In this document: piece by piece, positions 1 through 15,037 of the stretch
How the letters are laid out: every line of letters starts with the position of its first letter
Position numbering within the stretch: position 1 is the stretch's first letter
From: Candidatus Omnitrophota bacterium
GTDB lineage: Bacteria; Omnitrophota; Gorgyraeia; Zapsychrales; Zapsychraceae
Direction: 5' to 3'
Assembly: GCA_020429915.1 (NCBI GenBank)
Contig: JAGQKV010000002.1
Coordinates: forward strand, 128,061 to 192,060
Length of the DNA: 64,000 bases
The notes under the pieces: generated by a model
What the model was told of the DNA's origin: nothing
Seen by the model: only the letters and a program-made list of their open reading frames with translations
Database searches by the model: none
Translations under genes and position numbers: made by a program

Positions 1-44
1 ATAATTTCCAACAGCGTGAAACCACTTTTGTTCTTCATATTCAT
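1..44 (-). CDS. Type IV pilin/pseudopilin, N-terminal fragment; gene runs off the window start (MNMKNKSGFTLLEI...)
   Basis: Reverse complement of nt 1-44 reads MNMKNKSGFTLLEII, with a class-III prepilin signal (G|FTLLE) and an AAGGAG RBS 8 nt upstream of the ATG at 44; too short to appear in the ORF track. Confidence 0.5.
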   Translation of the reverse strand, partial: MNMKNKSGFTLLEI

Positions 45-158
45 TTTGATACTCCTTAATTTCGGTTCTTAGGTTTGTTCGTCAGGTTACTTCTGCATCC
101 GCTATATATCGCGAGATTTCAGAGTTCATCGGGCGTCGTGTGTCAACGCCTGAAATAG

Positions 159-200
159 CCAAAAAGAAAACCTATTCCGCATATATATCCGCAGAATAGG
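159..200 (-). terminator. Rho-independent terminator (minus strand)
   Basis: Stem CCTATTCCGC/GCAGAATAGG (9 of 10 bp) with ATATATAT loop at 171-200, followed on the minus strand by TTTTCTTTTT (161-170). Confidence 0.5.
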
Positions 201-13270: not shown

Positions 13271-13309
13271 TTCAATTTGCGTCGTCGATTGAGCAGAGGC
13301 GGCCGGCCG

Positions 13310-15037
13310 CTAGGGGGCCGGCGAAAGTCCGGACGGCCCCGCCAGGATGGTGCCGGCCAAATCACCGCGCAGGATCTCCAATTCCGCGGGGCTGAGTTGG
13401 GTTTGCGCCCGCCGGTACCAATCCGACCAACCCGCGGGGCGTTCCAGCGCCATGTAGCAACGTGCGGCGTAGCGGTAGGCGGCCAGGGCCGGTTGCAGGT
13501 CCACGCTGCGGCGCAGGTCCCGCAGGGCCGATTCGTAATCGCCTTGCAGCGCCGCGATCTGTCCCAGTCCGCGATATGGCGCCGCATAGTCCGGAGCGAG
13601 TGCCAGGGCCTGCCGGTAGTACGCCGCCGCCAGATTGTCATCGGGAACCGCACAGCGTCCCAGCATGAAAAACAGCCGCGGATCACGGTCGCCGAGTTGT
13701 ACCGCCCGCTGAAGCGCCGGGACGGCCTTGTCGCAATCGCCCCGCCGGAAGGTGGCGATCCCCAAGATGGCGTGCCCTTTGGCGTGACGCGGATAGTCCC
13801 GCGTCCAGGAATGGGCCAGCGTGAGATTGTCCTTCCACGCCACCGTCACCGTGAAACTGGTGAACACCGCGGCGGTCACCAGGCCGAGCCGCAAAAATCG
13901 GCGGATGTCGACGGAGAGCCGCGGCAGACTGACCTGGTCCAACAGGATCATGACGGCCACGCTCAGCCCAGCCGCGGGCAGATACAGGAAACGGTGGGCC
14001 ATGGGATTCGCCAGGGGAATGATATTGGCCGCCGGAAGATAAAACGCCGCCGCCATAACCGTAAAGAACATAAAATCGCGGTCCCGGCGCCGGGCCACGA
14101 TCGTGATGACCAGTAGTCCGCAAAACAGCACCGTGGACAACGGATTGATCAAATTTGGCTCACGGGCGGGATCAAAAAGCCCCGGTAAGGGCCGCACCGT
14201 CAGCGGTAATAACCACATGGACAGATACCGGCCGAGCAACATCAGCATGTAGGCGATATGGGCCCCGGCTGTAGTTCCCGGCGCGGGATTATGGCCGACG
14301 GCCGAGTTGGGGAAAACGACCAGATAAACCCAAATATAGAATGCGGTGACGAACCCATAGGCCGCCGTTGGGACGAGATGCTTCAGCCAGCCCTTTTCCC
14401 CTCTTTGCCGTTCGAAGAACCATTCGTAGGCCAGTAGGACCGCTGGCAGCAGCACGGCCGACTCCTTGCTGAAAACGGCCAATCCGTAGCAGAGCAGACT
14501 TCCGGCCAGCCACGCCTTCCGCCCTGAGGAACGAAAACGTATGTAAAGGATGATTGCCGTCAGACCGAAGAAGCAAGCCTGCAGATCATGCCGGTAACTG
14601 ATCGCGCACACCGCCTCGGCCGCTACCGGATGCGTACCGAACAGGGCCGCCGCCCACGCCGCCATCCGCGGCTGGCGTAAGACCATCCACGCAAGCAGAA
14701 AGACGAGCGCCGTGTTGGCCAGATGCAGCAGCCAGCTATGCAGATGATAGCCGAACGGATTCAGATCCCACAGGGCACGGTCGAGAAAATAGCTGAGGGA
14801 ATTGACCGGACGGTACGATACCGCCCCGCTGCTGTTGTAGGTACCGCTGTTCAGAAAGTACTCGCGGCTGTCGGAAATGTACCGGTCGCTGATCAATAGC
14901 GGCAGGTTATCCAATGAGCGGTAAAACTCATTACGGACGATCATGACCTCGTCGTCGCCGACAAAGCCGTTAAACAGACACAGACAAAAGGTCAAACCGG
15001 CGAGCGCCGTTGTTAATATAAGGAGGCGTTTGGGCAT
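13310..15037 (-). CDS. GT-C membrane glycosyltransferase (PMT/TMTC-like, DUF1736-type polytopic domain) with C-terminal TPR repeats
   Basis: 575 aa. N-terminal about 400 aa with roughly 10 TM helices, a DDE motif in the first loop (FVGDDEVMIVRNEF) and conserved PFGYHL. C-terminal TPR repeats. Paralogue of 42616-44325. Confidence 0.55.
   Translation of the reverse strand: MPKRLLILTTALAGLTFCLCLFNGFVGDDEVMIVRNEFYRSLDNLPLLISDRYISDSREYFLNSGTYNSSGAVSYRPVNSLSYFLDRALWDLNPFGYHLHSWLLHLANTALVFLLAWMVLRQPRMAAWAAALFGTHPVAAEAVCAISYRHDLQACFFGLTAIILYIRFRSSGRKAWLAGSLLCYGLAVFSKESAVLLPAVLLAYEWFFERQRGEKGWLKHLVPTAAYGFVTAFYIWVYLVVFPNSAVGHNPAPGTTAGAHIAYMLMLLGRYLSMWLLPLTVRPLPGLFDPAREPNLINPLSTVLFCGLLVITIVARRRDRDFMFFTVMAAAFYLPAANIIPLANPMAHRFLYLPAAGLSVAVMILLDQVSLPRLSVDIRRFLRLGLVTAAVFTSFTVTVAWKDNLTLAHSWTRDYPRHAKGHAILGIATFRRGDCDKAVPALQRAVQLGDRDPRLFFMLGRCAVPDDNLAAAYYRQALALAPDYAAPYRGLGQIAALQGDYESALRDLRRSVDLQPALAAYRYAARCYMALERPAGWSDWYRRAQTQLSPAELEILRGDLAGTILAGPSGLSPAP

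Follow-up and report, generated by a model that had tools for sequence, protein, structure and literature searches.

A Tol-like motor operon beside a type IVa-like pilus operon in Omnitrophota

We analyzed a stretch of 64,000 nucleotides (nt) from a Candidatus Omnitrophota genome (contig JAGQKV010000002.1, positions 128,061 to 192,060; hereafter the window), the first 15 kb of which carry type IV pilus genes next to genes for an ExbB/ExbD-type motor and a giant tetratricopeptide repeat (TPR) protein. A previous sequence-only reading had wavered between a composite trans-envelope machine and adjacent operons. Both alternatives are still live, with neighbours favoured: the reading that we prefer, and hold with about even confidence from the sequence comparisons, is that a lineage-specific Tol-like motor module merely neighbours a type IVa-like pilus operon, while the paralogy of a pseudopilin-like protein and a set of gene fusions hint at a link. 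Relatives were sampled by two pattern scans, one with the alignment of the fused PilM-PilN protein (PilMN; 39 genome loci) and one with the TPR-protein alignment (71 metagenome loci). The window itself matches part of a 295-kb metagenome scaffold without any difference.

Transcription units, promoters and neighbourhood

The gene list of the sequence-only reading was reproduced nearly item by item by the map of open reading frames (ORFs) and the hidden Markov model (HMM) scans: all listed minus-strand ORFs are present and match the expected families, with small corrections. The single-strand orientation it had pointed out is real but nothing special, since the minus strand is common to every gene up to about 40 kb, including uvrA (15083-17875) directly upstream of the block. 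As described, the genes follow each other closely, separated by 2-27 nt or overlapping by 4-23 nt, except at 8484-8629 and 13241-13309. The genome is compact, and genes with no relation to each other, for instance panC and its neighbours, overlap as well.

The stretch is organized in three transcription units, not one. Unit A, from 13240 to 8630, contains the genes for the TPR protein, ExbB/TolQ, ExbD/TolR, a TolA/TonB-like anchor, a zinc-ribbon protein (ZnR) and a pseudopilin-like protein. Unit B, from 8483 to 621, contains those for a helix-turn-helix (HTH) protein, PilMN, PilO, PilP, the secretin, PilB, PilC and pilin 1. Unit C consists of a riboswitch with its terminator, followed by pilin 2 and minor pilins. 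The features of unit A and the two promoters are the following (sizes in amino acids, aa):

13248..13275, minus strand: TPR-operon promoter, TTGAAA-16-TGnTATAAT (promoter scan, 11/12 positions)
10760..13240 (ORF to 13270), minus strand: periplasmic TPR protein, 826 aa, about ten YbgF/CpoB-type modules (TPR_6, 4.8e-80)
10076..10732, minus strand: ExbB/TolQ proton channel (PF01618, 1.3e-30)
9666..10070, minus strand: ExbD/TolR, transmembrane Asp23 present (PF02472, 1.3e-26)
9217..9663, minus strand: short TolA/TonB-like anchor, 148 aa (TolA N-terminus, residues 2-59, 5.4e-4)
8937..9224, minus strand: ZnR, membrane-anchored cytoplasmic C4 zinc ribbon, 95 aa (invariant C46, C49, C64 and C67)
8630..8959, minus strand: small pseudopilin-like protein ("PilX-like"), 109 aa (PilX_N, 0.014)
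8557..8588, minus strand: pilus-operon promoter TTGACAAGGTAAGTCAGTTATAGTGTAATGAA (-35 at 8588-8583, -10 at 8565-8560)

The promoter proposed earlier at about 8560-8588 proved to be exact: its boxes are TTGACA and TGTAAT, separated by a 17-nt spacer. A 32-nt promoter/operator-like motif (TTGACAAAGTAAnnnnnTTATAGTcTAATgAA) recurs at the same position in about 27 of the 39 genome loci, once per locus. The gap between the pseudopilin-like and HTH genes is AT-rich and measures 118-460 nt in the 24 measured loci that have the HTH gene. The earlier caution that an internal promoter might separate the two blocks was right, as both have conserved promoters of their own. On the TPR side, an extended -10 pattern, CTGnTATAAT N7-8 ATG, is conserved before the gene in most relatives. 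Here the box stands 7 nt ahead of the ATG at 13240, so that this codon is most likely the true start of the TPR gene; gene callers likewise chose it. The giant secreted TPR protein of the sequence-only reading thus stands, with its length likely reduced from 836 to 826 aa. This arrangement suggests that the TPR-operon mRNA may be leaderless or near-leaderless.

The order TPR-ExbB-ExbD-...-PilMN is kept in 60 of the 61 informative loci, and uvrA lies directly upstream of the TPR gene in just as many (60/61). About 30 kb (positions 1-26000 in the window) are collinear in some 100 Omnitrophota loci (L003-L112 included), with protein identities down to 25-40 %, and collinearity persists where the identity of the TPR protein is only 31-38 %. 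The conserved order is as follows: lysA, dapF, dapA, dapB, an aminotransferase gene, folK, panC, an aspartate dehydrogenase-like gene (aspDH), a gene for a K-rich protein and uvrA, then the motor block, the pilus block, the minor pilins, a tRNA and rsmE. Since uvrA and the lysA-rsmE block are equally conserved, synteny cannot show a coupling between motor and pilus. The comparison of neighbourhoods advocated earlier finds exbBD-TPR regularly, and not never, beside pilMNOPQ, but it is uninformative; run over the 39 genome and 71 metagenome loci, it was rejected as a test of coupling for this reason.

Two loci dissociate the blocks. In L092 (12475-13775), the TPR gene is followed by genes for a DUF2582 winged-helix protein, the pseudopilin-like protein, the HTH protein and the pilus, and exbB, exbD and the TolA-like and ZnR genes are missing. 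In L049 (9900-11998), the series TPR-ExbB-ExbD-TolA-like-ZnR is intact and the pseudopilin-like gene truncated; pilMNOPQ is lacking, so that the HTH gene stands directly before pilB. The independence of the two operons is supported by these dissociations, together with the separate conserved promoters and the AT-rich gap that lies between them.

The motor operon

On model comparisons, ExbB, ExbD and the TPR protein resemble a Tol system more than a Ton system. ExbB scores 114.8 bits with the TolQ model (cut-off 221) versus 71 bits with the ExbB model; in the comparison with PDB it is equidistant between both (ExbB 2.9e-11, TolQ 1e-10). ExbD gives 59 bits with ExbD_2 versus 56 bits with TolR (cut-off 127). 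All NCBIfam equivalog cut-offs are missed by the proteins of the motor block. Among the best 120 matches to ExbB, all are Omnitrophota orthologues with at least 67 % identity. The TPR protein has a signal peptide and no lipobox, and TIGR02795 (YbgF) recognizes ten stretches of it for a total of 247 bits; it also matches PorW/SprE (137 bits), GltE (6.7e-5) and, weakly, the PilW and Tgl models. The earlier label "ExbB/ExbD/TonB-like" thus holds for the ExbB and ExbD families, whereas on NCBIfam the proteins are nearer to Tol than to Ton.

The anchor is made of a transmembrane helix with an S-x3-H motif, a P..F.FLGSIL motif, a variable Pro/charged linker and a C-terminal Y.PL(R/K)L peptide. Among 64 orthologues, x3H is present in 63, the complete Sx3H in 49 and the C-terminal peptide in 56. 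No Pfam family is matched at E<=0.1, neither TonB_C nor TolA domain III is found, and the alignment of 34 orthologues ends in the short peptide. The prediction of a TonB-like protein devoid of the TonB C-domain was therefore correct, and its transmembrane motif is of the TolA/TonB type.

We compared this operon with three described systems. As in Tol-Pal, it contains a TolQ/ExbB-family channel, a TolR/ExbD-family protein with a transmembrane Asp, an S-x3-H anchor helix and YbgF/CpoB-type TPR units in a periplasmic protein of the same operon. Unlike Tol-Pal, it is accompanied by no tolB or pal gene in the window or in about 100 loci; its TolA-like protein carries a short conserved peptide instead of domain III, its TPR protein has 826 aa and about ten modules where CpoB has a coiled coil plus a single TPR, its TolQ and TolR scores are under the equivalog cut-offs, and it includes additional Zn-ribbon and pseudopilin-like genes. 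The closest described arrangement is a cluster of the Planctomycetota-Verrucomicrobiota-Chlamydiota (PVC) group, with the order TPR - tolQ - tolR - tolR - transducer, the latter combining an SHLS motif, a transmembrane helix and a vWA domain (PMC12204202). Our operon shares with it a PVC-related lineage and the succession of TPR, tolQ-like and tolR-like genes and of a gene for a transmembrane-helix protein with an SHLS/His motif. It differs by a single tolR-like gene instead of two, by a transducer without vWA or other globular C-terminus, and by the ZnR and pseudopilin-like genes that follow and the pilus operon that adjoins. A looser likeness exists with the Agl-Glt core of Myxococcus, in which a Tol/Exb-type motor (AglRQS) was recruited, as a module with the TPR proteins GltD/E and the TolA/TonB-like GltG, to an envelope machine other than Tol (PMC3169522): both have such a motor, TPR proteins and a Pro-rich TolA-like anchor. 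Here, however, no other Glt components or gliding genes are found, the GltE match is the one given above, and the phylum is different.

The last two genes of unit A deserve separate treatment. The ZnR gene overlaps both of its neighbours, and the overlap with the TolA-like gene is 4 or 8 nt in most loci. An exhaustive search for ZnR yielded 198 clusters, six of which are in-frame ZnR-pseudopilin-like fusions of 188-200 aa (P0214, P0225, P0253, P0256, P0279 and P0284; loci L053 and L113-L115); two of these recur in the same genomic slot, one on 5 contigs and the other on 7, which come from different samples. Because they are fused in at least six lineages, ZnR and the pseudopilin are predicted to work together, and the pair probably belongs functionally to the pilus system. 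In the fusions, the Gly before the pilin-like helix is retained; if a prepilin peptidase cut at this point, the ZnR part would amount to a giant "leader". Homology of ZnR to the Zn-binding N-terminal domain found in the prepilin peptidase PilD was also considered and rejected, as Pfam and PDB gave generic zinc-ribbon matches only.

The pseudopilin-like protein combines a predicted GspI-like fold with a GspK/PilX-like N-terminus, in which an invariant Gly10 precedes the hydrophobic helix and Glu5 is missing. Its AlphaFold2 model (predicted local distance difference test, pLDDT, 81.6) displays a helix at residues 8-67 and a three-stranded sheet. The PDB entries with the top Foldseek probabilities (0.8-0.94) are GspI, XcpV and EpsI, none of them significant (E >=0.2). 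At the profile level, the family aligns over its full length with a 110-aa family of the minor-pilin operon (d110; hhalign probability 96 %, E 1.5e-9), while pairwise BLAST between the two proteins is not significant (E 0.46). These comparisons hint that the last gene of the motor operon may encode a GspI-like pseudopilin, paralogous to a gene of the minor-pilin operon. The name "PilX-like" that it had received is supported in this way by structure model and profile comparison, the HMM match itself being weak (0.014).

The pilus operon and its c-di-GMP control

Units B and C contain the following features up to the edge of the window:

8316..8483, minus strand: HTH_17 protein, excisionase-type, 55 aa, first gene of the pilus operon (TIGR01764, 4e-12)
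6732..8261, minus strand: PilM-PilN fusion, GspL-like architecture (PilM_2 1.3e-12, PilN 2.1e-4)
6087..6728, minus strand: PilO (PF04350, 1.3e-07)
5617..6090, minus strand: PilP-position protein, with signal peptide and small C-terminal beta domain (weak T2SSB match, 2.4e-5)
4065..5603, minus strand: secretin, 512 aa from the gene-caller start (STN, Secretin_N and Secretin domains)
2322..4061, minus strand: PilB-type assembly ATPase (T2SSE 1.4e-136, plus MshEN)
1076..2305, minus strand: PilC/GspF platform protein (T2SSF, 5.7e-54)
621..1061, minus strand: pilin 1, GFxxxE domain, 80 % identity to pilin 2 (N_methyl, 7e-07)
215..296, minus strand: class I cyclic di-GMP (c-di-GMP-I) riboswitch aptamer, RF01051 (Rfam 57.5 bits, gathering threshold 35)
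167..204, minus strand: intrinsic-terminator-like hairpin of 15 pairs followed by a U-tract (terminator scan and ViennaRNA fold of the leader)
1..44, minus strand: 5' end of pilin 2 (MNMKNKSGFTLLEI...), which runs off the window edge (translation)

The type IVa core is present: PilB and PilC, PilM/PilN/PilO with the secretin, and N_methyl/GFxxxE pilins were all found. As in other type IVa machines, all core assembly parts follow the classic order, with prepilin-type pilins and a minor-pilin set downstream. The differences are the fusion of PilM to PilN, a PilP that is no lipoprotein and is weakly recognisable, a small HTH gene at the head of the operon, and the lack of PilT and PilD genes in the locus; neither was found within the 64-kb window or the flanks of related loci. 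Type IVa pili are reported to be common in Omnitrophota and to be expressed in V. archaeovorus (PMC10066038). That survey of Omnitrophota pili noted F-type ATPase neighbours and not an ExbBD-TPR neighbour, and the literature that we searched holds no description of ExbBD-TPR beside type IV pilus genes of this phylum.

In the HMM searches, PilM, PilN, PilO, the secretin and ExbD were matched by their models and TonB_C gave none. "PilP" is a name assigned by position: the slot is kept in relatives, but family support is limited to the T2SSB match. Homologues of the PilMN fusion are Candidatus Omnitrophota proteins only, and one of them carries T2SSL. The HTH_17 protein shows 65-91 % identity across the phylum, versus 24-57 % for PilMN, and its gene is missing from about one third of the loci. 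In one short contig (L027, 1-1700), the usual upstream genes are replaced by a DDE transposase gene of the insertion sequence type, which immediately precedes pilMN but is read from the other strand. Pilin 1, for which gene callers chose a start at 1040 (139 aa), duplicates the major pilin and is encoded between pilC and the riboswitch; this genome and L032 have such an additional copy.

Absent from the sequence-only reading, the c-di-GMP-I riboswitch with its terminator hairpin (167-306 for the two) lies inside the 578-nt gap between the two pilin genes. Among relatives, the homologous elements reach 53-64 bits. We derived a covariance model from four copies of the element; it gave matches in 20 of 36 sources, and in every case the match lay between pilC and the gene for the major pilin. 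For L003, the GGC variant (RF03167) is the top match in Rfam. The terminator-like hairpin is likely, from its predicted fold, to be the expression platform. Pilin 2 is the first gene of the pilin and minor-pilin operon placed under the riboswitch; its full-length form in L001 has 138 aa, an N_methyl motif and the 80 % identity to pilin 1 already given. The N_methyl/GFxxxE motif is also present in four genes downstream of pilins 1 and 2. Moreover, residues 5-57 of PilB form an MshE-type tandem 24-residue c-di-GMP motif (NF053729, 64.8 bits, cut-off 38). Because the riboswitch precedes pilin 2 and this motif is present in PilB, c-di-GMP probably controls both pilin supply and pilus assembly. Control of pilin genes by c-di-GMP riboswitches is known elsewhere, for example for pilA1 of Clostridioides difficile. 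As there, an aptamer with a terminator is found directly before the major pilin gene, and as in c-di-GMP-binding ATPases of the MshE type, the motif is carried by the assembly ATPase. Unlike in C. difficile, the aptamer is of class I, the phylum is different and a duplicated pilin gene escapes the riboswitch.

Upstream of unit A, one further gene had been counted in the cluster:

13310..15037, minus strand: multi-pass membrane protein with C-terminal TPRs, possibly a GT-C glycosyltransferase (PMT_2, sub-threshold, 0.0099)

The description as a multi-pass membrane protein with TPRs is right, while the GT-C identity relies on the PMT_2 match. As a member of the cluster it is not conserved: in most loci nothing lies between uvrA and the TPR gene, and elsewhere the slot is taken by an HTTM-like gene (L003, 3527-4903) or by a toxin-antitoxin pair of the RES-Xre type (L012, 3574-4904). 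We therefore rejected this gene as a part of the machine and consider its location a variable insertion slot. A paralogue with 25 % identity is located at 42616-44325 on the plus strand.

Two other observations concern the neighbourhood. A 148-aa protein at 18010-18456 (minus strand), with no Pfam match, carries two copies of a motif about 35 residues long, KVAKIGIKK.SGYLYFVDKNGDIS.AKM, and has a tail rich in Lys and Ala that resembles histone H1; relatives share 68-96 % identity with its N-terminal part, and nearly all of them have its gene next to uvrA. Several loci (L016-L018, L023, L028, L031 and others) are labelled as Planctomycetales or Saprospiraceae metagenome-assembled genomes, probably through binning or labelling errors.

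Neighbours or a coupled machine

If the Tol-like module merely neighbours the pilus operon, ExbB/TolQ and ExbD/TolR would form an ion-driven stator, on which the S-x3-H anchor probably docks as TolA or TonB does on theirs. The Y.PLRL peptide at the C-terminus of the anchor would be bound by the giant CpoB-type TPR protein, in place of a TonB/TolA C-domain. The job of unit A would most likely be a Tol-like envelope function, for example outer-membrane tethering, division or homeostasis. Unit B, which is transcribed from a separate promoter conserved across the phylum, encodes a small HTH regulator and the type IVa-like filament machine. Motor and pilus would stand side by side because the 30-kb block is collinear throughout Omnitrophota. 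Several points weigh against this interpretation. Neither tolB nor pal accompanies the motor, and its TolA-like protein, without domain III, is reduced to 83-90 aa in one divergent clade. The dissociated loci L092 and L049 correspond to one contig each. The overlap of the pseudopilin gene and the ZnR fusions suggest a physical motor-pilus link at least as naturally, and the functions of both systems are read from homology alone.

A composite machine, which we consider rather unlikely, would use ExbBD, through the anchor, ZnR and the pseudopilin, as an accessory energiser or assembly factor of the pilus, with the TPR protein as a scaffold to the secretin; by analogy, GldLM plus PorW in type IX secretion and AglRQS plus Glt in Myxococcus could be comparable assemblies. 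Such a machine would account for a pseudopilin-like gene that ends the motor operon and overlaps its neighbour, for the pilin fold of the protein model and its full-length homology to a protein of the minor-pilin operon, for the ZnR-pseudopilin fusions in six lineages and independent samples, and for the 4- or 8-nt overlap of the ZnR and TolA-like genes. Consistent with it are also a transducer without TonB/TolA C-domain, the lack of tolB, pal and TonB-dependent transporter genes nearby, the lack of a PilT-like second ATPase in the window or the locus flanks, the match of the TPR protein to PorW/SprE and, weakly, to PilW and Tgl, and the precedents of modules made of TPR, TolQR-like and SHLS transducer proteins that were recruited to new machines (PMC3169522; PMC12204202). 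Adjacency, however, has no weight when the whole 30-kb block is collinear, overlapping junctions of the panC kind join unrelated genes, the blocks have separate conserved promoters with the HTH gene between them, and L092 keeps pilus genes without motor genes as L049 keeps motor genes without pilMNOPQ. We know of no type IV pilus or type II secretion system that needs such a motor. In a more specific version, tentative and in our view unlikely, an Exb/Tol-type 5:2 proton motor would be wired to a secretin-based type IV filament through ZnR and the pseudopilin, the TPR protein being captured by the anchor peptide. This filament machine, wired to the proton motive force (PMF), might perform PMF-assisted pilus function or secretion, convergent with GldLM-PorW, and might replace a retraction ATPase, or gate or assemble the secretin. 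Nothing was found in support of the PMF-coupled uptake through the secretin that the sequence-only reading had evoked.

Each unit taken separately also admits another interpretation. Unit A could be a TonB-type uptake energiser, unrelated to the pilus and opening an outer-membrane transporter encoded elsewhere, as the ExbB and ExbD family matches, the slightly better score of ExbD with ExbD_2 than with TolR, and the S-x3-H motif and Pro-rich linker of the anchor would allow. This is very improbable: the anchor, as short as it is in the divergent clade, ends in a peptide instead of a TonB_C domain, ExbB favours the TolQ model, no TonB-dependent receptor gene exists in any related locus or in the examined part of the window, and, according to a preprint that covers 176 complete genomes of Omnitrophota, only 2 of the 14 flank sets examined have TonB-domain content and none has a TonB-dependent receptor/sus architecture. 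It is doubtful, though less so, that unit B works as a type II secretion-like pseudopilus machine and not as a surface pilus. That function would also explain the GspL-like PilM-PilN fusion (with T2SSL in one homologue), the GspI/GspK-like small proteins and the missing PilT, and it agrees with the T2SSB match of the PilP-position protein, with PilC scoring best on GspF (343 bits, versus 316 bits on PilC) and with PilB being nearly equal on GspE (589 bits) and type_IV_pilB (613 bits); the PilC scores are under both equivalog cut-offs and those of PilB just under them. On the other hand, the proteins of the alignment match the PilM, PilN and PilO models and not GspL or GspM, the secretin favours PilQ (192 bits) over GspD (179 bits), and the pilins lack the GspG body domain, as only their N-terminal 47 residues match (36.8 bits, cut-off 88.85). 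The type II marks sought, i.e. a GspG-type pseudopilin body, GspL/GspM and GspC, were not found. The PilM/PilN/PilO matches and the type IVa pili reported to be expressed in a cultured relative (PMC10066038) favour a pilus as the product of unit B.

Motors of the Tol/Ton type are increasingly seen as general engines, recruited to gliding, type IX secretion and vWA transducers. The locus described here adds a phylum-wide variant, in which the transducer is cut down to an anchor with a short peptide and is accompanied by a ten-module CpoB-type TPR protein, and its Zn-ribbon/pseudopilin pair connects the motor operon with the biology of type IV filaments. It is also a caution that perfect synteny is uninformative on function where gene order stands still over an entire 30-kb block. 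Should motor and pilus be physically linked, they would form the first secretin/pilus machine assisted by the PMF, and this in nanobacteria with pili that presumably serve to attach to hosts. If they are not, the locus defines an Omnitrophota Tol-like module and two conserved promoters, and still shows two apparent layers of c-di-GMP control on pili.

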